From Candidatus Eiseniibacteriota bacterium (GTDB lineage Bacteria > Eisenbacteria > RBG-16-71-46 > CAIMUX01 > WJJG01), in contig JAGMBO010000008.1 in assembly GCA_023129715.1 (NCBI GenBank), positions 58,340 to 122,339 on the forward strand: a stretch of DNA of 64,000 nucleotides. Reading direction: 5' to 3'. Below the pieces are notes generated by a model. That model ran no database searches, was not told where the DNA came from, and was given only the letters and a program-made list of their open reading frames with translations. The position numbers and the translations under genes are program-made. Positions 10,925 through 34,435 of this stretch are shown here, piece after piece (within the stretch, counting starts at the first letter, position 1; the number at the start of each line of letters is the position of its first letter).

Positions 10925-10927
10925 CAA

Positions 10928-17309: not shown

Positions 17310-19358
17310 CTACTCGACGATTGCTTTCGCGAAAGCGTCCACGGAGTCTGAGTAGAAATCGATCGTGATCTTGGTCGCCAGGTCATCGGGCAGATCGAAG
17401 AGCTGCCGGCGCGAGGAGATCGGCATGAGCAATTGCAGCGCGCCCTTCTCGACAGCCAGCTCAGCAATGGCGACCGGATTGGGAATCATCTCCACGGATC
17501 CGCCGAGGTTCAAAGCCCCGACGACGATCAAGCCGCCCTTGATGCTCCTCTCGATGAGTCCGCCGCACAGGGCGAGGAGAACCGGCAGGCCGAGCCCGGC
17601 CCCGGAGCGTTCAACGTCCATCGCGCGCATCTGGATGGAGAACTCATGGCCTCGTGGGTCCCGGTCTCCAACCAGCTCCCTGGCGCGCGTATAGAGGTTC
17701 TGCTCCCCGTAGCGCACGCTCTCGCTGAAGGCGGGTGGCTTGGGGGCATTGAGGATCTTGACCCCACTACCACGTCCCACGCTGACCTCGATCCGATAGA
17801 GGGAGACTGCCCCCTCCTGACCACCCGGGCTGATCGCCCAGATCTGTCCGGGCGGCAACGGATCGGTTTCGATCGCGTCGTCGCTATGCAGCTCAGGAGT
17901 GGCAACAAACTGCTCGACCCCATCGACACCCATGAAGAAGCTGAAGTGGGTGTTGCGGAACTCCGCCTTGAGGCAGCGCTTCTGCTGCTCCTTCACCCGG
18001 CGCCGCGCTTCCAGAGCCCAGCGCACGATCGTCTCCAGTTCCTCATCTGGAACAGGCGTGGCGGGATCCGGGAAGATGAGTTTCAGCAAGCCGCTGGTGG
18101 TCTTGTGCACCGCTTCGATGTCGCGTCCGCTCAGGGCACCCCCCCAGTTTACCCGCCCCTGCAATGCGGGAACCCGACTACCGGTGCGTAGTTTATTCCA
18201 GCATTCGGAGAGGAAGTCGCTGACCAATCCAAAATGGTCGGTCAGATGCTCGCTGGCATTCAGTTTCGGGAAATCCCAGCCGGGAGCGTAGGCGTGCAGA
18301 CGGTCCATGAAGGCCGTGTCCCTACGCATCTCAGGTGGCAGGGGATCGAGCAGGTGACTGATGCGCTGCTGTTGTTCGACATCCAGGTCGAGGTTGCCCA
18401 CCATCACGATGGCACCGGAGGCCCGAATGCTCTCCTTCCCGCGAGAAAACTCACCCGAGGCCATGTAGCCCTTCATGATGTTGACGCCATCCTTCTTGTC
18501 GAAGGCGATCCCGGCCACCTCGTCGAAGCAGACGACATCGTAGAGGCAGACCAGCCCCCGCTGGCCATTGGCCATGTTGACGAACATCTTGGCGACGGTC
18601 GCCTTGCCGCCGGAGATCAGGTGGGCGTAGGGAGAGATCTGTTGGTAAAGATGACTCTTGCCAGTACCGCGGGGACCGAGTTCGACGAAATTGTAGTTAC
18701 TCTCGACGAAGGGAACCATGCGCAGCAGGGTCACCATCTTGGCGCGCTCCGACAGGGCTTCGGGCTCAAGGCCGATCGAGCGGATCAGCAGGTTCTTCCA
18801 TTCCTCGGTGGTGAACTGCGTGCGCGCCTTCTGGAGCACGGCCAGGACATCTGGCTTTGACAACTGGATGGCACGCAGGCTCTCGATGGCAAAGGGACGA
18901 CCGTTACGTTCCTCGGCAATCGTCGCACTGTAAGTGAGTTTGACCTCGGCGTAGAAGCCGTCGGTCAGCATCCGCTCGTGCTCATGAACCAGGTCATCAC
19001 CGATACGGACATCCCGGAGACCCACACTGGTCAGCTCCACCAGGAAACAATCGTTGCGGGAATCGAGGCGCGCCTTGACCAGATCGATCAGTTTGACCGA
19101 TCCCTTCTCGCGTGCGCGGGCCTTGAAAAGCTCCTGCTCCCCGGTCCGAACAGTCCGATCCTGAAGCTGGCGCTCCACCACTTGGAGACCTTCCTCGATC
19201 TCGGTCTCGTCGACCGTCGCACAATAGCGTCCCAGGAGGAATTCCACGACATAGGTCGGCACCGGATACTGTCGGCTGTACTTACGGACCAGGTCCTTGC
19301 GAACCAGGTATCCATCCAGAGCCGCTGCCGCGAGTTTGTCGAGGTGATCAAGTTCCAT
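17310..19358 (-). CDS. brxL: BREX system Lon protease-like protein BrxL
   Basis: 682 aa. Central P-loop region (ELGPRGTGKSHLYQQISPY), C-terminal Lon-protease-like domain and size match BrxL. Terminal gene of a brxABC-pglXZ-brxL cluster. Confidence 0.85.
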   Translation of the reverse strand: MELDHLDKLAAAALDGYLVRKDLVRKYSRQYPVPTYVVEFLLGRYCATVDETEIEEGLQVVERQLQDRTVRTGEQELFKARAREKGSVKLIDLVKARLDSRNDCFLVELTSVGLRDVRIGDDLVHEHERMLTDGFYAEVKLTYSATIAEERNGRPFAIESLRAIQLSKPDVLAVLQKARTQFTTEEWKNLLIRSIGLEPEALSERAKMVTLLRMVPFVESNYNFVELGPRGTGKSHLYQQISPYAHLISGGKATVAKMFVNMANGQRGLVCLYDVVCFDEVAGIAFDKKDGVNIMKGYMASGEFSRGKESIRASGAIVMVGNLDLDVEQQQRISHLLDPLPPEMRRDTAFMDRLHAYAPGWDFPKLNASEHLTDHFGLVSDFLSECWNKLRTGSRVPALQGRVNWGGALSGRDIEAVHKTTSGLLKLIFPDPATPVPDEELETIVRWALEARRRVKEQQKRCLKAEFRNTHFSFFMGVDGVEQFVATPELHSDDAIETDPLPPGQIWAISPGGQEGAVSLYRIEVSVGRGSGVKILNAPKPPAFSESVRYGEQNLYTRARELVGDRDPRGHEFSIQMRAMDVERSGAGLGLPVLLALCGGLIERSIKGGLIVVGALNLGGSVEMIPNPVAIAELAVEKGALQLLMPISSRRQLFDLPDDLATKITIDFYSDSVDAFAKAIVE

Positions 19359-19360
19359 GA

Positions 19361-21820
19361 CTACTCCTCACCACCGATTGTGGTGGCCGTCTTGCCCAGC
19401 ACGCGTCCGGACGGATCCAGAATGACCAGGCTAACGATCGTGCCTTCCAGAGAATCATCTTCCACGAGGAGTCCCGCCCGGCCGTCCGGGTCGAGCGATT
19501 TGGGTTGCGTGACACTTGAAGTGGGATCATTCGGCTTGGTGCGCAGGTCCGCCGTGAGCTGCGCGGTTGCAGCTTCCACCGCCATAGGCGCGCCCGAGGC
19601 TTCCACGGTGACCCGGCAGCGAAGCCCTCGCCACTGGATGTCGGTGATGGTTGCTTCCCGCGGTGCCACCTGGCTGCCGGCGGCAAGGCGCAGATCGGGG
19701 ATCAGGCACTCCTGCAGGCTGACGCCACCATGGGCGTACTCATTCCCACTCAGGAAGCAATGCACACCAGGACCATAGGCAAATCGCTCGTGCTCGTTCC
19801 AGTGCCATGCGGCAGTCGGAACATCCAAGTGGGAGCTATCCTTGATTGACGCACAGCGGCTCCAGCGGCTCTCGGTCAAGTACTTGGGCAACTTGACCGT
19901 CGGCAACCCGCCGGGAACCAGCAACCAGCCGTGATCGGTCACAACGCGCACCCGCTGCCATCCACTCTCGAGCAGACCCGTGATGCGCTCCAGGAGAAGA
20001 TCCAGTTGCTCATCGATTCGGGCTGCTAGCTTCGCTTTCAGACTGTGGCCGAGCTTGTCGAACTCCCCATACTCAGTCCAGCCGCGAGCGTTCGGCGCGT
20101 GGGGATCTCCCTTCTCGTCCGGCTCGAGGATCTGATGGCCGGAAGCAGACAGCAGCTTGCGAAAGCGAGCGGTGTTGATCGGCTGATGGCCGTCGATCGT
20201 CTCGGGCTGAAACCCCGACTCGGGCCGATGACCTGTCAGTTCCTCAGCAACAGGCGAAACAGCCGGCTTGGCGGTGGCGGTCACGGTGGGCAAGGCTGCC
20301 CAGCGCCAGCCGGCCACAACCTGAAGCCCGGCTTCCACGGCCGAGTCGACCAACCGCTGGGCAATGTCGAATCGAAGGCCATCGACAAAGAGAATGCACT
20401 CGCCCGTCTCAGCGCTAACGCGTACGGACCCGGGAAGACTTGAAGAACCAGGGAAACCAGAAGACCCGGAGGAAGCAGGACGCCCGGCAACCTCACTAAC
20501 CTGCCCGTGAGTTGACCGTTGGAGCCCGGCAGTCTCGACCTGGGACTGCAACCGCCGCGCAGAATCCTCCAGCCATGAGAGATAGAGACAGCGCACGGCA
20601 GCCTGGATGGCCTGGCAATCCTCGTCACTCTTGACCTCCGCGACGGCCCTTAGCGCCGCATCATCGGCGCGATAGGCTCCCTCCACATACAACTGCGCCA
20701 TGAAATCGGGAGAGTCGCCGCCGATCGCCTTCGCCGTTCGCTCGCTCAGGATCGTCAGGTGCCGAAGCGCTTGAGCCAGGGGACACATATCCAGCTTGGC
20801 CCAGACCCAGTCGCGGCGTGCGCCATGCTCTTCCTCCAATGCGGTGATCTTCTCCCGTCCTGCCGATGCGGGGATATCCCGCAACGCGAGCAGCTCAAGC
20901 CGGAGGGCGTCTTCGGCCGCATCGTTCTCATCCGGCCAGGAGTGCTTGTCGAAGATGATCTCTCCCGCGGGCTTGGCGCGTCGCAGGAGATCAGGGATCC
21001 CTGGGTAGAGGGCTGGCGACTCGGCGTAGCGCTGCCAGACCCCCTGCCAGGCATCGCGGCCGAGTCCGAGCTTCTCACCACCGACGATCTCACCGTCGTC
21101 CTCGGGATCGAAGGCGTAATCCTCCCGGCAGCGGGACCGAAATGCCGACCAGGCGGCTTCATCCCACTCCGCTCGCGTGCCGGCCGGATCTCCCAGCCAG
21201 AGGAGCAAGTCGCGGGGGATGTCCCCGATCATCAGCTCATCGAAATCCTTGGCCGTGAGCCGCCGACCGCGCAGCCGCGAGAGCGAGGTGGTGGTTATTA
21301 CGGAAAGTGCACCAAGCATCGCCTGACGAGTATGTGTGTCACGGACCATATCCAGACCCAGACCGCCGTCTTCCGATACCAGGAAGGCCTCGACAGTCCA
21401 GTCCTTGCCATTCTTCTGCGCCCAGGTTGTGCCGCGAAACTGCAGCTCGACCAAAGGCTTCATCGCATCGGGACACTCTTCTGCCGCGCGCAGCAGTTGG
21501 CGGCCAACTTCCGGCAGGTAGATAATCGGGGTCGCAGCTTCGGGCAGCGTGACTTCCGGCAAGCTGCGCTCGATCACACATCGCAGCCAGATGGCCGGTC
21601 CAGTTCGGGCGTTGGGGTTGTACTCCCCCAGGGTCAGTAGTTCCGGGAGCAACGACCGCAGCTGCTTGACGACCGGCCGCCACTGGCCATCCGGATCGGT
21701 CCACAGTATGGCGGCCGGTGCAACCACATCGGCAGGGTTGAATCGCCCGGCCTCCATGACAGAGGTCTTGACCGCCTCGAGCAGGGTGGCGTGCTGTTGA
21801 GTTGAGTGTTGCATCGTCAC
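19361..21820 (-). CDS. pglZ: BREX alkaline-phosphatase-superfamily protein PglZ
   Basis: 819 aa. VVTDHGWLLVPGG motif of the PglZ domain. Overlaps pglX by 4 nt and sits 3 nt upstream of brxL. Confidence 0.85.
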   Translation of the reverse strand: MTMQHSTQQHATLLEAVKTSVMEAGRFNPADVVAPAAILWTDPDGQWRPVVKQLRSLLPELLTLGEYNPNARTGPAIWLRCVIERSLPEVTLPEAATPIIYLPEVGRQLLRAAEECPDAMKPLVELQFRGTTWAQKNGKDWTVEAFLVSEDGGLGLDMVRDTHTRQAMLGALSVITTTSLSRLRGRRLTAKDFDELMIGDIPRDLLLWLGDPAGTRAEWDEAAWSAFRSRCREDYAFDPEDDGEIVGGEKLGLGRDAWQGVWQRYAESPALYPGIPDLLRRAKPAGEIIFDKHSWPDENDAAEDALRLELLALRDIPASAGREKITALEEEHGARRDWVWAKLDMCPLAQALRHLTILSERTAKAIGGDSPDFMAQLYVEGAYRADDAALRAVAEVKSDEDCQAIQAAVRCLYLSWLEDSARRLQSQVETAGLQRSTHGQVSEVAGRPASSGSSGFPGSSSLPGSVRVSAETGECILFVDGLRFDIAQRLVDSAVEAGLQVVAGWRWAALPTVTATAKPAVSPVAEELTGHRPESGFQPETIDGHQPINTARFRKLLSASGHQILEPDEKGDPHAPNARGWTEYGEFDKLGHSLKAKLAARIDEQLDLLLERITGLLESGWQRVRVVTDHGWLLVPGGLPTVKLPKYLTESRWSRCASIKDSSHLDVPTAAWHWNEHERFAYGPGVHCFLSGNEYAHGGVSLQECLIPDLRLAAGSQVAPREATITDIQWRGLRCRVTVEASGAPMAVEAATAQLTADLRTKPNDPTSSVTQPKSLDPDGRAGLLVEDDSLEGTIVSLVILDPSGRVLGKTATTIGGEE

Positions 21821-24800
21821 CTGCTGACCTCTTTCTCTGTGTCATTCTTCGCCCGAGCCTTGCGCTTGACAGCGATGGTGTAGTGACAGGCGTTGTATCG
21901 ATTGCCGTCGAACCTGCTGCCGCCCATCCAATCGGTTGTGCGCTCGTCCCAGCCCCAGAACCATGGATGCTCCTCGCGCTCCCTGCTGGGCTCCTTCCCG
22001 CGATCCTTGCCCCACTTGATGTTGGGCTTCCAGCGCAGGATCCCGGCACCCCTGCGCCCATTCGGCAAGTCACTGGCCAGGAACGGGCGGATGTTCAAGC
22101 GCACGCCATCGTTGATGTCGGGCTCCCAGCCGATGGGCTGTTCGGCGAGGGGTTTCCAGCGCACGAAGATGTCGAAGGGTGGCTCACCTGCGAGGATCGC
22201 CTCCAGGCGTTGCTTGAGTTCCATCGCCGCGGTTAAACGTTCTTCCGCACCGCCGGCACCTCGCTTGACACCATCCTTCTGACAGGTGATCCAGTCACCC
22301 AAATAGCTGTAGGTCAGGTTCTCAAGGAGCATGCGGGCTTGGGCCTTTCCCTCGGCCAGCCGGTGGTAGTTGACCAGCGCGTGGAACCCATCGCGCTTGC
22401 GCCCATCCCAGATGTGCCAGATGAAGGGGCGATGGTGTAACAGCTTGCAGTGTTGCTGGAAGAAGTCGCTGCGGAGCCAGTCGTCGAGGTCCTTGGCGGG
22501 CGATCCGCTCTCGGAAATGAGCGCCGCTTCCCTGTCTGGTGACCAGTCGGTGCCGTAGGCAGTGGCCAGGAGTGCGCGCAAGCGTTCGGCGGCAGGATCT
22601 TCACCGCGAACGGATGCGATGCAGACGATGCCGTCGCGGTCCGAATACCTCTCGAGTTCGCCACAGCGACCGATCAGTTCCCGGGCCTCGGTGGAGAGGC
22701 GCATCTCCTTGTCGGTCTCCGCCGGCCAGCGGTAGCCGAGGAGGCGACCGACGGCCACCTGCAGCGGAGCCGTCGAGACTTCGGGGCGACCGTGGAAGAG
22801 CCATTGGGTTGGGTCGTCGGAGTAGGGTTCGGGAAGACCGTGGGGGTATTTCTCGTCGGCAACCTTCTGCCAGTGTTCGAGATCGAAGGGGACTTTCGTA
22901 ATCGTGGCTGCTGTGACATTCAACTTCTGGTCGATCAATCGAACGCCTCTATGAAAGCCAGAAGATGAGACGTACGCCCACAGTGCGGGGATTATGGATG
23001 GATCATCCGGACATATCGGGCACACATTGTCATCAAAGACCTCGCCCAAGTACAAGAACGGCTCCAAGTCCCGCATCTTATTGACCGCGACGCCTAGACG
23101 TTCCCATACATCTTGACCACGGAGCCAGCATCCGAACTGGGAGACAAGATCTGGATGATCAAGGGGGCACACGCAGAATCGCTCGCGTCCCGACCAAGGA
23201 TCACCCGATTGAGGGGAATTCAACCAGAGGACGGCATCAGTAGAAATGCGAGCCACAGTCCAGAAATGCCGAAGGAACCGTGGGGCGTCTCCAGTGGTGC
23301 TGCCCTTGCCATAACGCGCGCATTCGCTCAGCCACGGGCCAGCCTCCGTCCCCTGACCAATAATCCTGGAATCCGGATTCTCCAACTGCCCTGCCTGGCC
23401 GACCATCCGTACCGCGCCCCAAGGCACATCGGAAGATGCCGCAACCCTGGACACGCCCGGCGAGCCTCCCCCTCCGTCACTGACGGCGCCCTCCTCCGGC
23501 GGCGCCCAACGCACCTCACCCCCCTCCCCTCGCAACATCGCCGCCTTTACCTTGGGATCCCGCGGCTCGGAGGCATCGAGACCGGCAAACCGATGCTCTG
23601 CTGCCGGGCGCGATCGCGTCAGGGAGAGGAGCGCTGTGAATGCCCCCGCTGCTTGTGAGCTCTGAAACCCGTTCTCCCCCAACCTCGCCACCACATCCCA
23701 CTGAACCTCCACCAAAAGCTCCTGGCGCAGCTTCTTGTACGATCCCAGAAAGAGCCAGTTCTGCGGCGTGACCAGTGCGGCCGTGCCGCCAGAAGCACAG
23801 AAAGCCCGGGCGCGCGCGACAAAGGCCGTGGCGAGATCATGCTTGGCCTTGTTGTGGCGCAGTTCAATGAATTCCTTGAGGATCGGAGCCTGCTTACCAC
23901 GAGCGAGGTAGGGTACATTGGTAATCACCAAGTGATAGATACTCCCAAGAAGGCCCACCGCATCAGCCACGCCGCGGGTCGAGACAGCCAACTCGTGGCG
24001 ATCGTAGTCACGCCCTCCGGGACTAGCCTGAGCTGCCTCTTCCAGCACCGAGCGCAGTTCATCGAACCCCGCCTCCAGCAGATCATCATGTGTCGCGCGA
24101 GCGGGGTCGATGAGGCTCCCCAGCGTGGGCGCCTCCTGAAAGAGTTTGTGCAAGCGCTCAATGCCCTTCTGCGTACGAAGATCATCACCGGCCAGGGCGC
24201 ACCAGTCGGCCTGACTTGCTTGCGGTGCGATGCCTGAGCAGGCGATGCGGATCTCGGGAAGCTTCCGATGCCCTCCCGCGTCCGGATAGGTCCATGCGCA
24301 CAGGGCGATCGCGAAAGCGGCGATTTGCGTGCAGCGCTCATCGATCTCGAGACCAGACAGATTCTCGCGCAGGACTGCATCCACAGCATCCCGAGCTGTG
24401 AAACCCTCCTCGGCCATGCGGATTGGCACGAGATGACGGATCAAACTCACCAAGAAGTGGCCGGAACCGCAACAGGGATCAAGCACCCGCAAGTCGGCCG
24501 CCGCTCGTGGCCAGCCCGGGAAGATACCCGCCGCCGGCTGCCAGGGCCTGTCACCATCGTCACCGCGTACGAAGCGCAGGTAGTCCCAGGTCACGCCAGG
24601 AAGAGACAGCGCCCGGCGGAGCTGTTCCTCACTCTCGGCGGAGGTTGCCAGAGATGGATCCTTCGATAGCTTTCTGCCGGCCCACCAGGCCCCCAGCGTG
24701 TTGTGGATCAAGAAGCTCACCATGTAAGGCTCGGTGAAGAGCTGGGTCACCGCCGGCAGCTCATCGGCGCCGATCTTCTCCCCGGATGCGTTGACCTCGG

Positions 24801-25377
24801 CCTTGCGCTTGCTTTGCCAGTACTGATAGACCCAGCCGAGGGCATCGGCCGCCGTGAAAGTTGCCGGGTGCAGTCCATTCAGGAGACGTTCCAGCTTGAG
24901 CTGATGCTCGCGTGCCAAGCCAACTCTGAGTAGGGGATCATCAGGGCGAAAGATCTGCGGCAACATGCGCTCGGCACACCGGCTGGCATAGCCCCATCGG
25001 TCAACGCCGCTCGCTTTACCCAGCTCCTCGGCCTCATCGAGACTGATCGGCATCTGGCTCTCGGGCTCGATGAGCAGAGCATTTTCAGCAAGGAAACGCG
25101 CAAAGAGCATCCGGTGCCAATGCTCGTAGGCACATTCCTGCACAAGGCGGAGAAGCTGCAGACGCCCGGACCGGTCCTGAGCATCCCCGAGTTGGCGTGC
25201 CCGGGCGCGCAAGTGATTGCGCAGGTGCCGGGCGTTGGAATCCATGTGCGTGTAGGGCTCGTGGTGGTGAACGGCAAGGGATTCGAGGGCGGTTCGGGCG
25301 CCTTCCTCGGCAGCTTCACGCGCCTCGATGATGGCTCGCTCGAGCTTACTGCGCAATTCGGATGCAAGTGCAGTCAT
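21817..25377 (-). CDS. pglX: BREX adenine-specific DNA methyltransferase PglX
   Basis: 1186 aa. AdoMet motif I VLDPCCGSGHFLV. Motif IV region reads VITNVPYLARGKQ (NVPY instead of the canonical NPPY). Size and position match PglX. Confidence 0.85.
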   Translation of the reverse strand: MTALASELRSKLERAIIEAREAAEEGARTALESLAVHHHEPYTHMDSNARHLRNHLRARARQLGDAQDRSGRLQLLRLVQECAYEHWHRMLFARFLAENALLIEPESQMPISLDEAEELGKASGVDRWGYASRCAERMLPQIFRPDDPLLRVGLAREHQLKLERLLNGLHPATFTAADALGWVYQYWQSKRKAEVNASGEKIGADELPAVTQLFTEPYMVSFLIHNTLGAWWAGRKLSKDPSLATSAESEEQLRRALSLPGVTWDYLRFVRGDDGDRPWQPAAGIFPGWPRAAADLRVLDPCCGSGHFLVSLIRHLVPIRMAEEGFTARDAVDAVLRENLSGLEIDERCTQIAAFAIALCAWTYPDAGGHRKLPEIRIACSGIAPQASQADWCALAGDDLRTQKGIERLHKLFQEAPTLGSLIDPARATHDDLLEAGFDELRSVLEEAAQASPGGRDYDRHELAVSTRGVADAVGLLGSIYHLVITNVPYLARGKQAPILKEFIELRHNKAKHDLATAFVARARAFCASGGTAALVTPQNWLFLGSYKKLRQELLVEVQWDVVARLGENGFQSSQAAGAFTALLSLTRSRPAAEHRFAGLDASEPRDPKVKAAMLRGEGGEVRWAPPEEGAVSDGGGGSPGVSRVAASSDVPWGAVRMVGQAGQLENPDSRIIGQGTEAGPWLSECARYGKGSTTGDAPRFLRHFWTVARISTDAVLWLNSPQSGDPWSGRERFCVCPLDHPDLVSQFGCWLRGQDVWERLGVAVNKMRDLEPFLYLGEVFDDNVCPICPDDPSIIPALWAYVSSSGFHRGVRLIDQKLNVTAATITKVPFDLEHWQKVADEKYPHGLPEPYSDDPTQWLFHGRPEVSTAPLQVAVGRLLGYRWPAETDKEMRLSTEARELIGRCGELERYSDRDGIVCIASVRGEDPAAERLRALLATAYGTDWSPDREAALISESGSPAKDLDDWLRSDFFQQHCKLLHHRPFIWHIWDGRKRDGFHALVNYHRLAEGKAQARMLLENLTYSYLGDWITCQKDGVKRGAGGAEERLTAAMELKQRLEAILAGEPPFDIFVRWKPLAEQPIGWEPDINDGVRLNIRPFLASDLPNGRRGAGILRWKPNIKWGKDRGKEPSREREEHPWFWGWDERTTDWMGGSRFDGNRYNACHYTIAVKRKARAKNDTEKEVSR

Positions 25378-25608
25378 TTCAGGGCCTTCTCATTACTGGC
25401 GCTCTATAACAAAGCTCCATTCTCGATCTGCATGAGTCATATCGCCTGCACATTTCCAGGCTCGAAGAACGTCTGGCCAGATTTGGCCTCATCCCAGCAC
25501 ATCCGCGTTCGGAACCGCGTAACATCCACAACCATAATGGATTGCAGAACACTCAGGACATGCTGGCCGCGACCGACAAGACCCCAAACGGCCATCTCCG
25601 CTGACAAG

Positions 25609-25633
25609 GCCGGATTTGGCCGGATTTGGCCGA
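25609..25633. repeat. tandem 10-nt repeat (cggatttggc x2.5) in the non-coding block between the DUF4062 gene and pglX
   Basis: cggatttggc cggatttggc cgaat. A related ccagatttggcc lies ~130 nt upstream. Confidence 0.5.
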
Positions 25634-25974
25634 ATAGCAATCACGGGGCAGTTCCTGTGCGGCCTTGCCCCAAGGGCGGCCAGATGGAGGCGCTTCGCTC
25701 CGCGCACATGGGCGCACATGAGCAACCCCTTCCCTCAAAGCACGTTACGCCGATCCACAGCTCGAAAAATCCGCGCCCGTCACATGGCGCCACATATCCT
25801 CCTACGCCCAGAATGGCAGATAACGCGTATCCTTTCGTGACCCTCCGCCCTCCTTCTTAACCAGCTGTTGCCGGTGGAGAAGAATCGCGCATAGTTGGTG
25901 AAGGAGTGTTGAGTCCCGACTCTCGTCGCGCCCTGGATCTGCAGGGCGGTGCATCGGTGAGCCGATTGACCCAT

Positions 25975-27462
25975 TTATGAGCCATTTCCGGAACCATCGC
26001 CCGCTGATGAGCCGCTTGAGTCGTTTATGGGCCGTTTCCGTGGCACCTCGTAGTGGGCGCCGCGCCCAGCACCCGCCAGGACCAACAGGCCTTTGCTCAC
26101 CAGGTCGTCCAAGTCGCGTTTGGCGGTCGCCCGGCTGATGCCGGCAAGCTCCTGATACCGCCGGTTCGTAATCCGTCCCTCCCGTCGGGCAACGACCACG
26201 CTCTTTCTCTGCCGCTCGTTGAGTTCCATACCGGCCAGCACCTCCGTCGTCAGCCAATCCCGCCACAGTGCCTGGACGAACTGGCCTCCTTCCTGCCTGA
26301 ACTCAGGCTCGGGTAAGCCCGCCCCCCGGCACAGGGCGATCATGTCCAGCGTGCCGGTGCCGGCGCGTTCGATATAGTGGGCGAGAAAGAGCGCTTCGCT
26401 CAGAAGCGGGTTGCGGGGAATGGACGCGTGCGGGACGCGCAGCTGCGCCAGGGTCAGCTCCGGCGGCAGCTCCCCAGGGTTCCAAACCTCCAGCCGGTCG
26501 GCAAAGAGCATCACCTGGACGCTGGCGTTGCTAGCGTAGTCGCGGTGCGCCACGGCGTTGACGATGGCCTCAGCCACGGCTTCGCGCGGGAACTCGTACG
26601 CGACGGGCGCCTGCGGACCCCGGGCGCGTGTGCCCACGGAGCGGGTGACCTTGGACATCACAAAGTCGACCGCCTGATCCACCAGCTCGAACGCCGTGCC
26701 CTTGTAGACCTGGTAGGACGGGATGGGCTTGCGCACCTCGGTGCCGTGGAAGTGCAGGCACTTGACTTCGGAGGCGAGCAGGAAGCGTTGCGGCTGGTTG
26801 GCGAACAGAAGGATGGCGGCGTGGCTGGGCCGCCCGGCGTCGAGCAGGTTGAGATGGGCTAGCACTTCGGCTGGTGGCGTTTCCTCGCCGAGCGGGTACT
26901 GTCGCTCGCGGCGGGCGCTGCCGAGGAACCACCGCACCTTCTCCGCCGAGATGTCCTCGACTGAGGCTTCCGGACAGGCCGCCGCATCGAAAGGCCGCGT
27001 GCGGAGCTTGCCGGTTCGCTCGAGGTGCTCGACCAGGCTGGCGTACAGGGCGCCGGTCAGCTCGGGAATGCCCGCGAACCGACGGCGAATCACCTGCCCA
27101 CCCGCCTGGCGGATTAGCGCCCGCATCTTCGGGTGTCGTCCTTTGTTGGTCGAACCCTTCACGAAGATGAGCCGGACCTTGTTTTGGGCCGTGGCCTTAT
27201 CGAACTCTTGCTCGGTGGGTGAGATCCCCTCGGCATCCTCACTGCCGTACTCGTTGCCCAAGAGCCCCAGGTAGAGGGCGCAGCGGCCCACCTCGTCGAG
27301 GTAGACGTCATCAGCCCGGCGATCGGAGGCGGGCAGACCTTCGAAGAGGAAAACATCGAAGAAGCGCCGCAGCAGGGCATCGCCGCGGACGAAGGCCCGA
27401 ACGGCGGCCCGTTCGTCTTGGAGTTCCTTCTGGACGCTGCTGACGAAGATGCGCTCGATCAT
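25975..27462 (-). CDS. DUF4062-domain / HATPase_c_4 (RecG-C-terminal-like) / winged-HTH protein (COG2865-like without AlbA_2 head), embedded in the BREX operon
   Basis: Start at MIERIFVSS. The N-terminal ~140 aa match the DUF4062 pattern (IFVSS..EL..ER.AV...V....L...F..F.FE.LPA.D..ADDVYLDEV..C.LYLGLLGNEYGS). The middle region has LTNAGLLLFG-like LLFANQPQRFLLASEVKCLHF. The HATPase_c_4 signature is AEAIVNAVAHRDY...DRLEVWNPGELP. The C-terminal wHTH is ITNRRYQELAGISRATAKRDLDDLVSKGLL. Confidence 0.6.
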   Translation of the reverse strand: MIERIFVSSVQKELQDERAAVRAFVRGDALLRRFFDVFLFEGLPASDRRADDVYLDEVGRCALYLGLLGNEYGSEDAEGISPTEQEFDKATAQNKVRLIFVKGSTNKGRHPKMRALIRQAGGQVIRRRFAGIPELTGALYASLVEHLERTGKLRTRPFDAAACPEASVEDISAEKVRWFLGSARRERQYPLGEETPPAEVLAHLNLLDAGRPSHAAILLFANQPQRFLLASEVKCLHFHGTEVRKPIPSYQVYKGTAFELVDQAVDFVMSKVTRSVGTRARGPQAPVAYEFPREAVAEAIVNAVAHRDYASNASVQVMLFADRLEVWNPGELPPELTLAQLRVPHASIPRNPLLSEALFLAHYIERAGTGTLDMIALCRGAGLPEPEFRQEGGQFVQALWRDWLTTEVLAGMELNERQRKSVVVARREGRITNRRYQELAGISRATAKRDLDDLVSKGLLVLAGAGRGAHYEVPRKRPINDSSGSSAGDGSGNGS

Positions 27463-28065
27463 CGGGACCCCTCCGCGAAGCCGAGGGTCGGCTCTCCGAT
27501 GTTCTTGATGCGGCGTCTGGCCATGAGTCCATCCATGGGTTTGCATAGGTGGGCGGTTGATTTTCCGTTCGCGCCGGGCGTGAAGACCCCTCGGAAGCGG
27601 GCCCCTTGGTCTTGCCTGCGCCTTCCCGTTCTACCGAGGCAACCGACCCAGGCCCGACATCCTATCGCTCTCCGTGGGCGGTTGCATCCCCGCGGAGTGC
27701 TGTTGGCAGTGGAGAAAACCGCGCTTGGCCTGCGCTCTCCGGCGGGCGCGTGGAACCGCTGTACCAACCCCCGGTCGATGGCATCTCGGATGACGCGAGA
27801 AGCCATCGAGTAGTTCTTCTTGTCTATTCGCAGGCGTTCTCGCAGCGTGCTGTTGCTCATCTGTCTTCCAGATACATGGCAGAGACATGCATGCTGGTAG
27901 CAGGCACGAACCGCAGATCGGCGTTGCTCTCCTTGAACTCGACCCATTCAGTCTCTTTGGGAAGAGCGCACAGAGAATGCACTCGCTGTGCCAACTCCTC
28001 CGCGCTCATCAGGCCATGCGCACGCTCTGCCACATACCCCTGGTTCATCAGGCTCTGTCCCTCCA

Positions 28066-31000
28066 TCACGTGATCACGATCGGGCCATCCTTGAGCTTGC
28101 TCACGAGCTCGCTCTCGGTTTGAGCAAGCCAGCGCTTCACATCCGCTTCCGTCTTGAGTGTTGCGCTAACCAGACGAACAGACTGCACCTTCGGCTCCAG
28201 CAGCCTGGCGGCCGCCACCGCTGCCTTGGCGAATTGCTGCGGAAGCGCATCCGTTTTCGTTTGCCAGGTGGGCAGCGGGGTTTCTTCAAGAGAGCGGAGC
28301 AACTCGGCTTCGTCGCCGATCGAAAGCGGGAGCACCGCGACGATGCCCTCGGAGGCCAATAGATCTTTCCGCTGCTCGGCCGAAAGGCTCTTCCAGATCT
28401 CGCTTGCCGTTAGCGCGGCCATTTGGGCGTCGAAGGTCTTGGTGAACCTGGCATGCTCTTCTTTGACAGCGCGGCGCAACGCATTCACCGCCTGTTTGCG
28501 GATCTCCGGTAGAAGATCGGTGGCCTCCAGCAACCGTCTCTCAGCTTTGACCGACTCGGCCTGACTTCTCAGGTCGTCAGCCTCGGGTAGGGTGACGGCA
28601 TGGTCGATCAATCGCACCAGCTGCTCCCAGGCGGGCATGCGCTTGGCCGCTAGATCGGCCAGCTTCGTCCAACTCGCGACTTGCTCGCTCAAAACATCAT
28701 GTTGGCTGAGCATCTCGCCGAGCTGTTCGTTGCCGGCCAGAGCGCGCAGGGTATCGAGATGCTCCGTCTTTGGCCTCTCAGGCAAGGGCATCTCTCCACC
28801 CGCCCGGTCGGCCAGATCAGCCAAGCGCGCCAGAAACTCGCCGGCCTTGAGAGACTCCTCGTTGGGGTTACAGGTCACGTCCAAGCCACGGAACAGCTTG
28901 CGAAGCTTGATCCGCTCGGGAGTACTGACGATGACTGACTCGATCCGGAAATCGGTGACCGAGATCTTGGCCTGGTCGAGCTGCCCGGCCTTCAGTGCTG
29001 CGCCTTTGTGGGTCGCCAGCAGCTGCCCCGCAGTGAAGAGAGTCAGGAGAGCTGCGTCCACCGCGTCACGTGGCCAGCCGTAGGGACTCGTCTCGAGCGT
29101 ATCCCGGATCTCCTTGCCCCGCCTTCCCGAACCCACCTCGTTGCGAACGACCGCACAGACCGAATGGTTCGCCGCCGGCTGGTCCCAATCGACAGCCTGC
29201 AAGGCACTCTCATCGCCATTTCGTGCCCGGCGAATCACCGCCGGCCAGCGTTCGTCATCGGCATCCTTGAAGTCAGGGAAAAGCCGATCGAGAGAAGCCT
29301 TCGCCGCAGCACGGATCTTCTCGACCAGTTTTAGCTCGAAACGCTCATTGCCCCCGCCCTGGACAACCTTCCCCCGATCGATCACCTCAGCAATGATCTG
29401 GTCGCGGGCAGCCAGGGCAGCGCCCATTCGCGTCGTCATCGCATCGCGTGCTTCGAGCCCCTCGGGGGAGGTGGGCGTTCCCTTGAAACCGAGTGTGGCC
29501 CGGGCGGCTTCGTATTCGAGGATCGCCTTCTTGAGATCCTCGGCACTGGACTTCGGAATGTGAACGTAGATGATCGGACTGTCGTGCCCGGCGGCTCGCG
29601 CATCTCCCAAAACGGTGGCCTCGCTTTCTCCCCAACCATCCCGAATCCAGACCGGGATCTCCCTCCCGGCACTGGCGGGCGGCTCGGGGCCGAAGTGGGG
29701 CGTCAGCTTGCGGGGCTCCTTGCAGGCGCCCTGGAGCATCTTGATGCTCTTGAGCACGCCCGCGCAGCCGTCGGTGATCAGGGCGGCGTGTTTACTGGCG
29801 AGCGTGGTCAAATCACTGCCGAGCCGCGTTCGGCGATTACGGAACTCACGATCCCACTCGCTGCTCTCGCGGGTCTGTAGGCTGTACTCGTCATCGAGCT
29901 TGATCAGGATGCCCTTTTCAACGAGTTGGTCCAGTACCGGCGGGAGCTCCTTACGCAACCGTGTGCCATCGCTGGCCAGATCACTGACCAGAAGATCCGC
30001 CAGCGTGGCCGGGGTGGCCCGCACGCCGATATCTGCCACTTCCTCGCGGGGGAGTTTCCGGATCAGAAAGACCAGACCGCACACCCGCTTGGCGAAGCGG
30101 CCCTCGGGGGTACTGTTGTCAAGGTTGCGGATCGTCTCATCGATCTCCCGCAAGAGCACGCCGCTGCGCAGCAAGCCGGGCTGGAGCTGATCAAAGATGA
30201 AATCACCCGGCACCACGTTGCCCAGCTCTTCATCGGCCAGCTCGCGGACCGAGTCGTAGACAATGCGCAGTTGGGTGCGGAGCTGGCTGCTGGTGCCGGG
30301 CACATCGACGGCCCGCAGCGTGTGTTCCCAGAACCTGCGGCGCACCGGAAGGAGCGGATAGTCGTCAACCATCACGGCACGGTCAGCACTGCGAGCAGCG
30401 ATGCGGGTGCCCGAGAGCTGGCGGTCGATCTCGCCGGCGTGGGATGTCAGCATTTCCTCGATCGCCTTGCGTCGATCGGCCTTCTTGGCTAGCACCACGC
30501 GCCGGGTGACGGTCTCAACATCGGTGTCCGACAACTCGATCGGAATCGTGAAGCGCCCTATCATCCGCTGCAGAAGAGGATCGCTTCCCGCCAGGGCGAT
30601 CTGCCCGGCCCCAACCAGCAGCACGCGACTGTCGAGCTGCTTACAGAGTGCCTCGGCCACCTCCTGGACATCAGTCGACCGAGTTGCGCTGCCCCCAATG
30701 AAGAGCTGGATCTCATCCAGGACAACCACTGTACTAGGAATCTGGCCATCGCGCGTCAGGACGTCGCGGATGATCCGGATGAAGTCGCTGGTGGGCAGAT
30801 CTTCCAGAACCGGGAACTGTGCCCGCAGAGCCATGCGTGCCTGTTTCAGATCGGGCGCGAATGTTGGATCGGCCGTGAGAACCGCCTCGGCCAACAGGGG
30901 GCTGACATAGAGATCATGCAGCTCCTCTCTGAAATCCCGGCGGGCAGCCGTCACCGCATCCCTGACATGGTCAAGGATCCCGTTCTTCTGCAGCCACAGG

Positions 31001-31512
31001 CAGAATTGCGCCTGCGGCAACGACTCCGGGAGACCGGCCGATCGCAGGATGATGCCGAGTACCGCCAGCCGGACACTCTCCCCACCACCGGATGGCAATG
31101 TCCCGGAGGCCGCGTGGAGACCACCGCAGCGCTTTCCGAAGGTATCCAGCTCCTTGAGGAGATCCCGCACATCCTGCGGCAGCCGGGCCAGGCCGCGGGC
31201 GCTAGCCCCGTCGGACTCGAAGCAGGTGTCTACCCACAGGTGACGAAACATCTTGAGCAAGTGGGACTTGCCGCTCCCGTAGAAGCCGCTCACCCAGGCC
31301 GCCGGCTGGGTCGCTGAATCGACGCTGCCAAGGTAGGATTCCAGGATGCGCGTCAGACCATCCTCGTATTGCCCCTCGCAGACGAAGTGCTCCAGCTCGG
31401 AGCGCAGGGTTTCGATTTCCTTCGGGGTAGTAGCCTCACCTACCGCCGCCACACCATCGTTGACCAGCCGTGCGACGGCAGGGTCACGCTGAAAGATCTC
31501 TCGGTTCTTCAT
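28066..31512 (-). CDS. brxC: BREX P-loop ATPase BrxC
   Basis: 1148 aa with Walker A GFYGSGKSHLLKM near the N-terminus. Large alpha-helical remainder. Positioned after brxB. Confidence 0.85.
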   Translation of the reverse strand: MKNREIFQRDPAVARLVNDGVAAVGEATTPKEIETLRSELEHFVCEGQYEDGLTRILESYLGSVDSATQPAAWVSGFYGSGKSHLLKMFRHLWVDTCFESDGASARGLARLPQDVRDLLKELDTFGKRCGGLHAASGTLPSGGGESVRLAVLGIILRSAGLPESLPQAQFCLWLQKNGILDHVRDAVTAARRDFREELHDLYVSPLLAEAVLTADPTFAPDLKQARMALRAQFPVLEDLPTSDFIRIIRDVLTRDGQIPSTVVVLDEIQLFIGGSATRSTDVQEVAEALCKQLDSRVLLVGAGQIALAGSDPLLQRMIGRFTIPIELSDTDVETVTRRVVLAKKADRRKAIEEMLTSHAGEIDRQLSGTRIAARSADRAVMVDDYPLLPVRRRFWEHTLRAVDVPGTSSQLRTQLRIVYDSVRELADEELGNVVPGDFIFDQLQPGLLRSGVLLREIDETIRNLDNSTPEGRFAKRVCGLVFLIRKLPREEVADIGVRATPATLADLLVSDLASDGTRLRKELPPVLDQLVEKGILIKLDDEYSLQTRESSEWDREFRNRRTRLGSDLTTLASKHAALITDGCAGVLKSIKMLQGACKEPRKLTPHFGPEPPASAGREIPVWIRDGWGESEATVLGDARAAGHDSPIIYVHIPKSSAEDLKKAILEYEAARATLGFKGTPTSPEGLEARDAMTTRMGAALAARDQIIAEVIDRGKVVQGGGNERFELKLVEKIRAAAKASLDRLFPDFKDADDERWPAVIRRARNGDESALQAVDWDQPAANHSVCAVVRNEVGSGRRGKEIRDTLETSPYGWPRDAVDAALLTLFTAGQLLATHKGAALKAGQLDQAKISVTDFRIESVIVSTPERIKLRKLFRGLDVTCNPNEESLKAGEFLARLADLADRAGGEMPLPERPKTEHLDTLRALAGNEQLGEMLSQHDVLSEQVASWTKLADLAAKRMPAWEQLVRLIDHAVTLPEADDLRSQAESVKAERRLLEATDLLPEIRKQAVNALRRAVKEEHARFTKTFDAQMAALTASEIWKSLSAEQRKDLLASEGIVAVLPLSIGDEAELLRSLEETPLPTWQTKTDALPQQFAKAAVAAARLLEPKVQSVRLVSATLKTEADVKRWLAQTESELVSKLKDGPIVIT

Positions 31513-32072
31513 CCGTCAAATGCTCCATTGTGTAACGTGATCGGGACAGCCAGGTAGTTCCAGCCGTCGCGGGCATCCAACAAGCGGTAGTTGTTGTCGT
31601 CGAACTCGCCTGGAAAGAAAAGCACCAAGCGTCCGCGGATGTCCCTGGCGATCTCTTTCAGGATCAAGGAGACCTTGGCGAAACCGAACAAACTGGCAAC
31701 GCCGTGAACCGCGACCACGGTCTCCTCATCTACCTCATCGTCGGTCAGGGACGCACGCAGGCGCTCGGCCGCGAACTTCACGAAGTCACTGCGCAGTTTC
31801 ATGCCGATCGACTCCGGCTCCTCGAAGTAGACCTGGCGATATTCAGTGCCGGCCATCCAGCGAGCAAACACCCCCGTGAAGTCGAAGCCCTTCCACTTGT
31901 GCCCCGCCCCGGTCGTCGCCATTTCGAAGAGCTCGATGCGGGCACGCAACCTCCGCTCATCCGTCTTTGGGTAGACGACGAAGATCGTTTTCTGGTCCCC
32001 GGCGAGGTTTCGTAGCCAGGGAGCGGAGATGTGATTCCTGTAGCGCCCGGCGAGATCTTCAATGCGTCCCAT
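31509..32072 (-). CDS. brxB: BREX protein BrxB (DUF1788)
   Basis: 187 aa with a DUF1788-like sequence (IFVVYPKTDERRLRARIELFE...). 4-nt overlap with brxC. Confidence 0.8.
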   Translation of the reverse strand: MGRIEDLAGRYRNHISAPWLRNLAGDQKTIFVVYPKTDERRLRARIELFEMATTGAGHKWKGFDFTGVFARWMAGTEYRQVYFEEPESIGMKLRSDFVKFAAERLRASLTDDEVDEETVVAVHGVASLFGFAKVSLILKEIARDIRGRLVLFFPGEFDDNNYRLLDARDGWNYLAVPITLHNGAFDG

Positions 32073-32880
32073 TGAGCAGCTGCCTTTCCTTCGGCGTCAG
32101 GAGCCGAGCAAAGGAGACCTCCACAACGCCTCCAGACTGGGTCACATCGAGGAGTCCGAGACGTCTGGCATCGATCGCCTGCTGAACCAAGCTCTCCGGT
32201 GGACTATCGAGGATCTGGGCCCAGAAGGAATGAAAGAACCCCATTCCACGTGTCCCGGTAGCGTGGGCAAGCAGCAGCGCGAAAGCGGTCACGGCAGGTG
32301 TCGGCTGCACCTGTTGGCGGACCTTTCGTCCCCGTCCCCTCAAGTGTCCAGACTGGGTCCATGATGCAGCGGCGTTTCGCACAACCTTGTCTACGGTGCT
32401 ACTGCTGAGCCGCCCGTGGACACTGCCGGCAATGGCATCGGTGAGTTGTTGGCGGGCAAGCTCCTCGCCCTCTTGCATGCGGCTGATGACCTCGGCGGTG
32501 CTTCGCAGAAGAGGATCGCGCGCCAGTGCGGTCAGTAGGGCGAGCAATGGACGACCGCTGCGCTCTGCTTGCCAGAGAAGACGCAGGAGTCGGAAGAGAG
32601 GTATCGCGGGATCCAGGCCGTAGAGCTCACGAAGCCGCTGGAGGGACAGCTTCCGCGTCGCAGCCGTACGCTTGCCCAGGCAATTGCGCGCAAGGATGGC
32701 TTCGGCATACCTCTCCCTAGCGGCCTGGATGGGGCATTCCTCAAGCGCGCGCGCCAGCTCGGGCAGCATGATGGTCCGACTGGTGTGCGTCCCTTTGTCT
32801 CCAAGGCGGATGCCGAACTCTCTCAGATGGTCATGCGTGATGGACTTGGGCAACCGCGCTTCAATTGGGTCATGTTGCAC
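32059..32880 (-). CDS. brxA: BREX protein BrxA (DUF1819)
   Basis: 273 aa. First gene of the cluster. Helical protein with a DUF1819-like profile. 14-nt overlap with brxB. Confidence 0.7.
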   Translation of the reverse strand: MQHDPIEARLPKSITHDHLREFGIRLGDKGTHTSRTIMLPELARALEECPIQAARERYAEAILARNCLGKRTAATRKLSLQRLRELYGLDPAIPLFRLLRLLWQAERSGRPLLALLTALARDPLLRSTAEVISRMQEGEELARQQLTDAIAGSVHGRLSSSTVDKVVRNAAASWTQSGHLRGRGRKVRQQVQPTPAVTAFALLLAHATGTRGMGFFHSFWAQILDSPPESLVQQAIDARRLGLLDVTQSGGVVEVSFARLLTPKERQLLNGTH

Positions 32881-33175: not shown

Positions 33176-34120
33176 TTAGCCCGCGTCGCGGGGCATCCAG
33201 ATCGGCAGATGCATTTCTCCAAGTTGCCGGGCGATCTGCTTGCGCAGGTGGCGAGCGACCGCCTTCAGCTCTGCGGGAGTCGGAAAAGCGACCTCATCAT
33301 CGCTCAAGTGCAAGGCGCCCGAACGGGGGCGCCCACTATCGTTGTACCCAAGTGCCATCCCATAGCGGGCCCCGTCATAGACGAAGATGGCGAGTCCGGC
33401 CATCTTCGTGTCATCGAGGGAACCGCCCATGATTGCATCGAGCCAACCATCGATATCGAGTTCGATGTAGCCTTCGACGATCGCCAGCAGGGTCACGTTG
33501 TGGATCTCGAGCGTATGCGGAGCTTCCTCGCCCGGGTTGGGAACGGACATGCGCGGCAGACGCCACGCCCGGACAGTGATCCGCTGCGAGCTGACCAGCC
33601 GCCCCGGATGGTAACCGAGGATGCTGTAGGGAATCGCCACGCGCAGGTTCTCGACGAACTCCGCCCGCGACCAGACCTCCAGCCCGCGGGCATCGCGCAT
33701 GCTCTGCACACTGGCGATCCGACAACAGGGGACCCGGCTCTTGCCCCCGCTGGAATCGAGCACCGCCTGAAGATGCTCACCGGTGACCAGACCGAAGGTA
33801 TCCCGATCGAGCAGACCGACTAGATAGGCGAAAATCGGGTCCTTGATGTCTTCGGGCATGTAGGGCTCAGCCGGTAGGTCCAGCGTATCGGCGCGCGCCA
33901 GGGCGGCATCGATGCGCGGCTCCCAGACCCGCAGGTAGTGCTCGCGCGAGGCAAGCGATTGAAAGGGGCTGACCATGACGGTCTCATCCGTCTTCGGCGA
34001 CGCATCCCGCGCCTCCTCCGCAACTCCCGGAGAGCTCAACCCAGTACAGAGGGCGAGCAGGAGAATCGTCACACCGCCGAGCGTCCCCGGGGGGCCTGCC
34101 CCGCCCGCGCAAGTTCTCAT
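33176..34120 (-). CDS. hypothetical secreted protein
   Basis: Internal start MRTCAGG..VTILLLALCTGLSSPGVAEEA looks like a signal peptide. No recognisable domain. The upstream ORF extension encodes the 24-bp tandem repeat. Confidence 0.4.
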   Translation of the reverse strand: MRTCAGGAGPPGTLGGVTILLLALCTGLSSPGVAEEARDASPKTDETVMVSPFQSLASREHYLRVWEPRIDAALARADTLDLPAEPYMPEDIKDPIFAYLVGLLDRDTFGLVTGEHLQAVLDSSGGKSRVPCCRIASVQSMRDARGLEVWSRAEFVENLRVAIPYSILGYHPGRLVSSQRITVRAWRLPRMSVPNPGEEAPHTLEIHNVTLLAIVEGYIELDIDGWLDAIMGGSLDDTKMAGLAIFVYDGARYGMALGYNDSGRPRSGALHLSDDEVAFPTPAELKAVARHLRKQIARQLGEMHLPIWMPRDAG

Positions 34121-34156
34121 CAATCCGCTCCCATCTCGACGCGCACGCCCGCGCAT

Positions 34157-34204
34157 TCCCACCATCCCGCCTTCGCGCACTCCCACCATCCCGCCTTCGC
34201 GCCA
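34157..34204. repeat. 24-bp perfect tandem duplication upstream of hypothetical gene 33176..34120
   Basis: tcccaccatcccgccttcgcgcac x2 (one mismatch). Confidence 0.6.
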
Positions 34205-34435
34205 TCCCCTGGGAAGAGCCGGTGTTCTCCCGCCGACCCACCCGCTGCTCCGGGCACAGGTTCCGGTAGTCTGCCGGGAGCGGCGGCCGGCTGCAAGTGC
34301 CCGGGCGGGTAACCCGGCTGCAGGCGCCCCCCCCCGTCGGGCATGGACAACGCGCCGCCGTGGCTGTAATCATGCCGTCAGTCGAGGCTCGGGGAAGAAG
34401 ACCCACGAAGACCGACGAACAAAGGAGCGGAACCG

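Follow-up and report, generated by a model that had tools for sequence, protein, structure and literature searches.

Proteins that combine a Schlafen RNase, a minimal histidine kinase and a winged helix-turn-helix (wHTH) domain have been tied, in at least 1017 taxa, to bacteriophage exclusion (BREX) loci and loci related to BREX, and were proposed to serve as 'backup suicidal effectors' (PMC12839542). Prokaryotic Schlafens are tRNase effectors fused to sensors, with histidine-kinase-like fusions, with or without a helix-turn-helix (HTH), accounting for 53%; the group considered here, of COG2865 type and also termed pSlfn-HisKinase-HTH, has a solved example in DIP2311 (PDB 3LMM) (PMC12839542; 10.1101/2025.07.24.666596). 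A different effector, DUF4062, is presented in two 2026 preprints as a TIR-like NADase that constitutes the single-gene abortive-infection systems Swarozyc (KpSwz) and Evangelion (Eva01-04); according to these, KpSwz and Eva01 deplete nicotinamide adenine dinucleotide (NAD) and both require the catalytic Glu as well as a C-terminal auxiliary region (10.64898/2026.05.01.722283; 10.64898/2026.06.25.731849), which in KpSwz is described as having an HTH/winged fold and binding the phage portal. Here we analyse a 64,000-nt stretch of a Candidatus Eiseniibacteriota genome (contig JAGMBO010000008.1), hereafter the window, in which a gene for a 495-aa protein is inserted between brxC and pglX of a type 1 BREX operon. 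This gene does not represent a new category, but joins the DUF4062 head of the NADase defence systems to the GHKL-wHTH chassis of the BREX-linked Schlafen proteins.

Three further systems are relevant for comparison. In RzAgo, a SLFN-pAgo (Schlafen-prokaryotic Argonaute) protein composed of a Schlafen head, PF13749 ('Schlatpase') and Argonaute, ATP binding by PF13749 leads to tetramerisation and thereby unites the effector heads, the only experimental evidence for a PF13749 ATPase driving effector oligomerisation (10.64898/2026.05.29.728809). The window protein has neither the Argonaute sensor nor the Schlafen head of RzAgo, its sensor being at most the wHTH. PARIS (AriAB) is embedded in a Salmonella type 1 BREX (PMC11341690) and, like the window gene in the reading that we favour, is an abortive-infection module placed inside a type 1 BREX operon in the same orientation; unlike it, PARIS comprises two genes for unrelated proteins, an OLD-family ABC ATPase and a TOPRIM nuclease, and has a known trigger, Ocr. 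BrxR, finally, shares with the window protein a wHTH and residence in a BREX locus, but is a wHTH-WYL-WCX protein encoded upstream of brxA, whereas the window protein lacks WYL and WCX, is predicted to be enzymatic, is encoded inside the operon and is not conserved with BREX.

The BREX operon of the window is complete and lies on the minus strand, and all of its core genes were confirmed by PADLOC models (E, expect value):

32059-32880, minus strand: brxA (PADLOC, E 6e-99)
31509-32072, minus strand: brxB (PADLOC, E 4.5e-79)
28066-31512, minus strand: brxC, type 1 ATPase, upstream border of the insert (PADLOC PDLC02489, E = 0, residues 1-1147 of 1148)
25975-27462, minus strand: intact gene with DUF4062 head, GHKL ATPase and wHTH (Pfam)
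21817-25377, minus strand: pglX, methyltransferase, downstream border of the insert (PADLOC PDLC02528, E = 0; Pfam N6_Mtase, Eco57I and MmeI_Mtase)
19361-21820, minus strand: pglZ (PADLOC, E 6e-300)
17310-19358, minus strand: brxL (PADLOC, E 1e-287)

The interval between brxC and pglX measures 2,688 nt and holds 25975-27462 as its sole intact gene, in agreement with an earlier model-made interpretation of the bare letters (the sequence-only reading), which had noted a 495-aa protein within about 2.7 kb. A candidate Shine-Dalgarno sequence, GGAGG, is found 8 nt ahead of the ATG. Since the consensus of the homologues starts at the same Met, a longer open reading frame (ORF) of 523 aa is unlikely to represent the product. 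Public assemblies of a Candidatus Eisenbacteria metagenome-assembled genome (MAG) include the product with 100% identity. The parts of the protein are encoded as follows:

27037-27462, minus strand: DUF4062 TIR-like head, residues 1-142, predicted NADase effector
27205-27207, minus strand: codon of Glu86, predicted catalytic glutamate in the motif S81-P-T-E84-x-E86-F87 (KpSwz alignment and conservation)
26263-26895, minus strand: linker and GHKL (PF13749, HATPase_c_4) ATPase, residues about 190-400
26038-26229, minus strand: C-terminal wHTH, residues about 412-475 (DIP2311-like_C)

All three domains named in the sequence-only reading were recovered by a Pfam scan: DUF4062 (PF13271) at residues 4-90 (E 9.6e-21, 74.2 bits against a gathering cut-off of 24.7, profile positions 1-82 of 82), HATPase_c_4 (PF13749) at residues 313-396 (E 4.1e-20) and a DIP2311-like_C wHTH (PF22168) at residues 438-472 (E 1.9e-6, 28.5 bits against a cut-off of 27). 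Pfam matched neither SLFN_AlbA_2 (PF04326, at E ≤ 0.1) nor a WYL domain in the protein, and no NCBIfam model matched it. The GHKL signature residues E298, N302, H306, N328, G330, G368 and G370 are invariant or nearly so across the homologues; the protein thus possesses a PF13749 GHKL domain with the conserved Mg-ATP residues that characterise the Schlafen-GHKL-wHTH group. By motif, with the sequences unaligned, E298 and N302 correspond to E314 and N318 in the E-x3-N motif of RzAgo. PADLOC models for pAgo and pAgo-associated proteins matched residues 208-377 (E 2e-12), because RzAgo carries the same PF13749 domain. The wHTH resembles that of the Fic protein 8cil (E 4e-5) and is the most variable part of the family, with a mean identity of 0.32 among the locus homologues, compared to 0.76 in the GHKL region.

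For the head, we built an AlphaFold2 model with an 85-sequence alignment, which reached a predicted local distance difference test (pLDDT) score of 81 and a predicted template modelling (pTM) score of 0.63; it superseded a single-sequence model that was unusable at a pLDDT of 34. Residues 1-150 are modelled as five beta-alpha units, so that the head is predicted to have the five-stranded parallel sheet with beta-alpha repeats of a TIR-like fold, the possibility for which the sequence-only reading had suggested a structure prediction. Residues 416-472 are modelled as three helices and a hairpin, as befits a wHTH. A family profile retrieved the solved DUF4062 NADase KpSwz (10wc_A, E 2.8e-7), and in the profile alignment Glu86 falls on the Ala of the deposited KpSwz E97A mutant, i.e. 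on the position of the catalytic Glu, the counterparts of which are E97 in KpSwz, E87 in Eva01 and E1008 in TEP1. Glu86 is invariant in 85 homologues and a Glu in 74 of 77 locus proteins, and F6, S8, S81, E84 and F87 are likewise invariant or nearly so. The window protein thus shares with KpSwz and Eva01 the N-terminal DUF4062 core, the catalytic Glu and the aromatic and SxTE-E-F(Y) motifs, and by analogy with these enzymes we infer that its head is a TIR-like NADase with Glu86 as the catalytic residue.

The likeness extends to the families as a whole. KpSwz and Eva01 resemble the window family in being encoded by single genes, in having a conserved head and a variable C-terminus, and in their horizontal spread and link to defence islands; the auxiliary domain of KpSwz, with its HTH/winged fold, furthermore recalls the wHTH. 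The window protein differs from KpSwz in having a GHKL ATPase between head and wHTH, and it has no auxiliary region of the KpSwz type. Evangelion is set apart from it by the text of the papers, which mentions no GHKL-wHTH fusion, and not by the sequence of Eva01. The text of both preprints contains neither a GHKL or histidine-kinase fusion nor BREX; the survey of BREX-linked Schlafens (PMC12839542) makes no mention of TIR, NADase or DUF4062. We found no paper that joins BREX and DUF4062, and a literature search with HATPase_c_4 alone returned incidental mentions only. The sequence-only reading was aware of no described BREX accessory of such architecture; this has to be qualified, as the parent Schlafen architecture has been linked to BREX (PMC12839542) and DUF4062 has been characterised. 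Its remark on the usual fusion of DUF4062 to NTPases is true of eukaryotic NACHT proteins, whereas in bacteria the systems characterised so far consist of one gene each and vary in their auxiliary region.

The relation to the Schlafen proteins became apparent from a search with the chassis, residues 190-495, against 1.84 billion cluster representatives. At E ≤ 1e-3 it yielded 13,555 relatives, of which 618 reached E ≤ 1e-30; among the top 150 there were 57 full-length proteins, 40 of them with a DUF4062 head and at least 11 with a Schlafen head. One of the latter, P0139 (SLFN_AlbA_2, HATPase_c_4 and wHTH), shares 48% identity with the window protein across 343 aa (E 9e-121). This alignment covers window residues 143-485 and begins only at residue 143, the heads of the two proteins being unrelated. 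As the chassis is conserved to this extent while the heads are not, the DUF4062 head has taken the place of the Schlafen head, a replacement that the sequence-only reading had surmised. The two groups have the same GHKL domain and DIP2311-type wHTH and the same habitat, namely BREX, DUF1156/DUF499 and type I restriction-modification (R-M) operons, but the AlbA_2 nuclease head with its E-x4-(E/D)-x-K motif is absent from the window protein, in which the unrelated DUF4062 head extends to residue ~143. With the Schlafen head replaced, the predicted output is NAD+ hydrolysis rather than tRNA cleavage. Two composite proteins were seen among the chassis relatives: P0172 (897 aa) has the order TIR_2, HATPase_c_4, DUF4062, HATPase_c_4, and with two NADase-type heads on two chassis copies hints at TIR_2 as a third head type; P0121 (2918 aa) has four chassis-like stretches and a signal-peptide-like N-terminus.

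A trace of the parent form is preserved in the window itself. The 600 nt between brxC and the 495-aa gene (27463-28065) are not featureless, but house the remnants of a Schlafen-GHKL gene:

27714-28012, minus strand: remnant of a canonical Schlafen(AlbA_2)-GHKL-wHTH gene (tblastn against plasmids)
27917-28012, minus strand: N-terminal piece of the remnant
27714-27860, minus strand: C-terminal piece, with about 1.2 kb deleted between the two

When the pieces were queried separately against plasmids by tblastn, they matched the N-terminus (E 5e-3) and the C-terminus (E 1e-5) of one and the same 484-aa gene, an 'ATP-binding protein' with SLFN_AlbA_2 and HATPase_c_4 found in about 45 records of Roseobacter plasmids. 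Because the two fragments correspond to opposite ends of this gene, a canonical Schlafen-GHKL-wHTH gene must once have stood directly after brxC, from the interior of which about 1.2 kb is now missing. No ORF within 27714-28012 is intact, and Pfam and PADLOC gave no match for either upstream ORF fragment, the remnant being recognised only by tblastn against plasmids. Its living counterpart is found in a Verrucomicrobia MAG (locus L053; homologue and BREX loci are numbered L001 onwards), where, at 7963-11419, an intact SLFN_AlbA_2-GHKL gene (556 aa) is followed 340 nt on by a DUF4062-GHKL gene (481 aa). The order is that of pseudogene and gene in the window, and upstream of the pair are BrxC, a 298-aa ORF and a DUF1016 protein. 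A 39-nt tandem duplication (27977-28053, copies 74% identical) inside the N-terminal piece of the window's remnant suggests replication slippage during or after inactivation of the gene.

We collected 53 metagenomic loci with a BrxC 50-83% identical to that of the window, about 27 of which are informative on what comes after brxC. In 15 of these, pglX begins 13-16 nt past brxC (for three of the 15 the score was 112 nt, an effect of the PglX alignment starting at residue 33 or 34), the arrangement that the sequence-only reading had described as canonical for type 1 BREX. At least 10 further loci have differing cargo at precisely this junction, and the DUF4062 form occurs there in none of the roughly 27. 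Hence, the 495-aa gene is not a routine component of the window's BREX lineage, but one of many alternative passengers at a permissive junction. The cargo of the other loci comprises:

L086 6561-7610 and L089 12544-13587: 349-aa TIR_2 protein
L114 9650-11221: unannotated 307-aa protein and a Cap15-like cyclic-dinucleotide receptor
L107 13456-16850, and L113: DEAD helicase and DprA/SLOG protein
L087 5480-11147, and L088: radical-SAM protein, DUF6375 and a 1440-aa protein without Pfam match
L092 and L095: canonical Schlafen-GHKL genes
L110 13683-14393 and L128 13461-13745: small unannotated proteins

The pair in L114 is possibly a minimal cyclic-oligonucleotide-based antiphage signalling system (CBASS), and several of the unannotated genes may be undescribed defence genes.

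Homologues of the 495-aa protein with 57-87% identity are found in Eisenbacteria, Acidobacteriota, Verrucomicrobiota, Planctomycetota, Desulfobacterota, Nitrospirota and bacteria of the candidate phyla radiation (CPR), as well as in Methanothrix, Methanoculleus and Thermoplasmatota. Identities of this order across many phyla and archaea indicate horizontal transfer. The archaeal homologues (Methanothrix, Thermoplasmatota and Methanoculleus; L036, L066, L074 and L080) are 61-68% identical to the bacterial protein, which implies recent transfer between domains. Among 74 homologue loci with a callable gene, 27 have a modification-based system within three genes: 12 a type I R-M system, mostly in the order hsdM-X-hsdS, 12 an SNF2 helicase with DUF1156/DUF499 or an Eco57I-like methylase, and three BREX. 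Other neighbours include a UvrD-PD(D/E)XK protein, TOTE primase, GmrSD, Cas1 and integrases. Placement between brxC and pglX is restricted to 3 of the 74 loci; the order brxC-X-pglX recurs in L076 and L077, in a BREX lineage only 21-25% identical to that of the window, with the gene of L076 beginning 6 nt after brxC and ending 46 nt before pglX. In four Desulfuromonadales genomes (L057, L060, L061 and L073), by contrast with these defence settings, the gene stands alone between rlmH and gpmI (SPOUT methyltransferase and phosphoglycerate mutase), in a neighbourhood conserved across all four.

Taken together, these observations lead us to regard the 495-aa gene as, probably, an autonomous, mobile, single-gene abortive-infection module with a TIR-like NADase effector, a GHKL switch and a wHTH sensor, which settled in the brxC-pglX hotspot beside a dead predecessor of the parent type. 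This corresponds to the option in the sequence-only reading of an independent sensor or effector module riding inside BREX, and fits the mobility of the gene and its non-BREX contexts. By analogy with KpSwz, Eva01 and SLFN-pAgo, a phage-derived cue, protein or nucleic acid, would engage the wHTH/GHKL part, the wHTH acting as the specificity or sensor element. The PF13749 GHKL domain (residues about 190-400) would serve as an ATP-dependent oligomerisation switch, and ATP-driven assembly would bring the TIR-like heads (residues 1-142) into an active arrangement, in which they would hydrolyse NAD+ via Glu86, so that the infected cell would cease to support phage growth. The interposed GHKL domain implies ATP-controlled assembly instead of the stalk-pulling proposed for KpSwz.

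Several points weigh against this proposal. Similarity to KpSwz stops at residue ~176, and KpSwz beyond its residue 182 has no detectable resemblance to the window protein, so that its activation logic is not simply transferable. The predicted fold of the N-domain fits nucleoside deoxyribosyltransferases (NDTs) and the CMP hydrolase MilB as well as it fits TIR, which makes another nucleotide substrate possible. Not every DUF4062 protein is an active NADase, as human NWD1, NWD2 and NPHP3 had no activity in vitro. Furthermore, 41 of the 74 homologue loci are without any profiled defence family, a figure that partly reflects the small number of defence profiles and many short contigs. Lastly, the gene may share the expression of the BREX operon, as it is co-oriented and has no sigma-70-like promoter of its own, and it may be functionally coupled to BREX.

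Such coupling is the core of the alternative that survives best, which we nevertheless hold to be unlikely: that the protein is a second-line effector watching the neighbouring methylation-based system. In analogy to PARIS, it could fire, for instance, when a phage anti-restriction protein, among them DNA mimics like Ocr or ArdA, titrates the DNA-binding wHTH or disables PglX or BrxC. The defence-linked copies are mostly found beside a methyltransferase or specificity gene, the brxC-pglX placement has arisen in three BREX lineages independent of one another (that of the window, that of L076/L077 and that of L053) and the packing in L076 is tight; moreover, the parent Schlafen form has been proposed as a BREX 'backup suicidal effector' (PMC12839542), PARIS senses Ocr, an inhibitor of BREX, and the wHTH is the fast-evolving portion of the family. 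However, at 65-75% identity the gene also stands alone amid housekeeping genes, in the four Desulfuromonadales genomes, and it occurs in many loci without a partner. Its partners, where present, belong to at least four unrelated system types, so that no specific protein partner can be conserved, and the characterised DUF4062 systems act as single genes.

Concerning placement, in L012, L025, L026, L047, L052, L065, L068-L071, L076-L078 and L081 the gene usually lies directly beside the methyltransferase or specificity gene, the boundaries occupied being hsdM/hsdS, SNF2/DUF1156, SNF2/Eco57I-like methylase and brxC/pglX. This may reflect function, or only permissive boundaries between sub-operons. 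A broader version of the coupling idea, which we think rather improbable, would make the GHKL-wHTH chassis a general guard of methylation-based defence (BREX, type I R-M and DUF1156/DUF499), with the wHTH as bait for DNA mimics or anti-defence factors and with interchangeable heads (Schlafen tRNase, DUF4062 NADase and TIR_2). If this were true, the window would record the replacement of a tRNase guard by a NADase guard, perhaps after phage tRNA-based or other countermeasures.

Two other alternatives have, in our view, only a slight chance of being correct. The first retains the architecture but changes its chemistry: the head could be an N-glycosidase or deoxyribosyltransferase-like enzyme that depletes nucleotides, or it could make a signalling ADP-ribose derivative for an unlinked effector. 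Deoxyribosyltransferases indeed ranked first when the N-domain was compared by Foldseek, and in sequence space DUF4062 lies between the TIR and NDT clans. On the other hand, the head belongs to PF13271 by sequence, with the catalytic Glu of KpSwz aligned; both active DUF4062 enzymes tested, KpSwz and TEP1, give only ADP-ribose and nicotinamide; and no conserved partner gene able to read a signal was found in the homologue neighbourhoods.

The second, just as doubtful, is that the wHTH protein regulates BREX transcription. The sequence-only reading had considered it as an alternative regulator replacing BrxR, and it would in this case bind palindromes upstream of pglX and control pglX-pglZ-brxL. 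Apart from the C-terminal wHTH itself, the idea draws on features of the non-coding stretch between the gene and pglX, together with the lack of a WYL-domain protein at the ORF just upstream of brxA:

25475-25488, 25608-25621 and 25618-25631: three exact copies of the palindrome GGCCRGATTTGGCC, 98-254 nt upstream of the pglX start
25773-25790, minus strand: terminator-like GC hairpin followed by a T run, about 185 nt past the stop of the gene (consensus scan, pattern match only)

The exact copies, two of which overlap as a 10-nt tandem, are confined to 25475-25631 within the window and thus lie directly downstream of the gene and nowhere else; with up to 2 mismatches, GGCCRGATTTGGCC is matched 8 times in the window, where chance would give 1.9. 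The hairpin suggests that pglX requires a promoter of its own, and the palindromes are a possible operator or promoter element of pglX-pglZ-brxL, which the insert has parted from brxABC. Yet none of the 82 homologue loci contains GGCCRGATTTGGCC, not even L001 with its 87% identity, and the flanking non-coding DNA is likewise unshared. The family has been kept at 57-87% identity across phyla in BREX-free contexts, its invariant catalytic Glu and GHKL ATP-binding residues are unexpected in a plain repressor, and related BREX loci function without the gene at the junction.

That the gene is an inert passenger, recently transferred and unexpressed or decaying like the adjacent pseudogene, is very improbable: although the Schlafen-type gene next to it at this junction is decayed and no sigma-70-like promoter was detected in the insert, the gene has a full-length frame with conserved catalytic and ATP-binding residues all intact and a good Shine-Dalgarno sequence, and is co-oriented within an otherwise intact operon.

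The locus amounts to a natural experiment in effector swapping, in which one GHKL-wHTH chassis bears either a Schlafen tRNase or a TIR-like, putatively NADase head, and thereby connects two defence families whose descriptions, dating from 2025-2026, were separate. It leads to the prediction that PF13749-driven oligomerisation is a generic trigger for different suicide effectors, and it pins the brxC-pglX junction as a cargo hotspot that can be mined for further defence genes. Given the size and strong conservation of the family, biochemical work on one member would be enough to annotate thousands of proteins, which at present are labelled 'DUF4062 domain-containing', 'ATP-binding protein' or 'RecG-like helicase'.

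As to the remainder of the insert, the sequence-only reading had described about 600 nt of lower-GC, repeat-bearing non-coding DNA next to pglX, and 25378-25974 proved to have a GC content of 0.58-0.60, compared to 0.62-0.68 in the surrounding genes, the repeats being the three GGCCRGATTTGGCC copies; it contains no ORF with homology. The sigma-70-like promoter scan found no sites in the insert, the sigma-70 consensus being uninformative for an Eisenbacteria genome. An Rfam scan of 25000-28400 gave sub-threshold matches only, the best being a fluoride riboswitch with 19 bits against a gathering threshold of 34 and inside the coding region; all were dismissed as chance. When both non-coding flanks were compared by blastn with the 82 homologue loci and the rest of the window, no real similarity emerged, so that the flanks do not belong to a conserved mobile cassette. 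A tblastn search of 976 neighbour proteins against the insert gave nothing beyond E ~1e-3, the chance level for that number of queries. The inverted repeats I4 and I10 that flank the gene were considered as cassette ends and rejected, since by our estimate chance alone would produce about nine 12-nt pairs with one mismatch in 2.85 kb.

Two observations concern the wider operon region. PglZ (19361-21820) had no Pfam match at E ≤ 1e-3, in spite of its E of 6e-300 with the PADLOC PglZ model, and the current Pfam PglZ model seems to overlook the PglZ of this lineage. Upstream of brxA, about 8.5 kb (33176-41644) are filled with long overlapping ORFs on both strands, of 337, then 362, 575 and 463 aa on the minus strand and of 1236 aa on the plus strand, for which Pfam, PADLOC and NCBIfam gave no match. 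A SagB-like dehydrogenase is encoded just beyond them, at 41641-42381, and the region could be a cluster of the type that makes ribosomally synthesised and post-translationally modified peptides (RiPPs), or uncharacterised island cargo.

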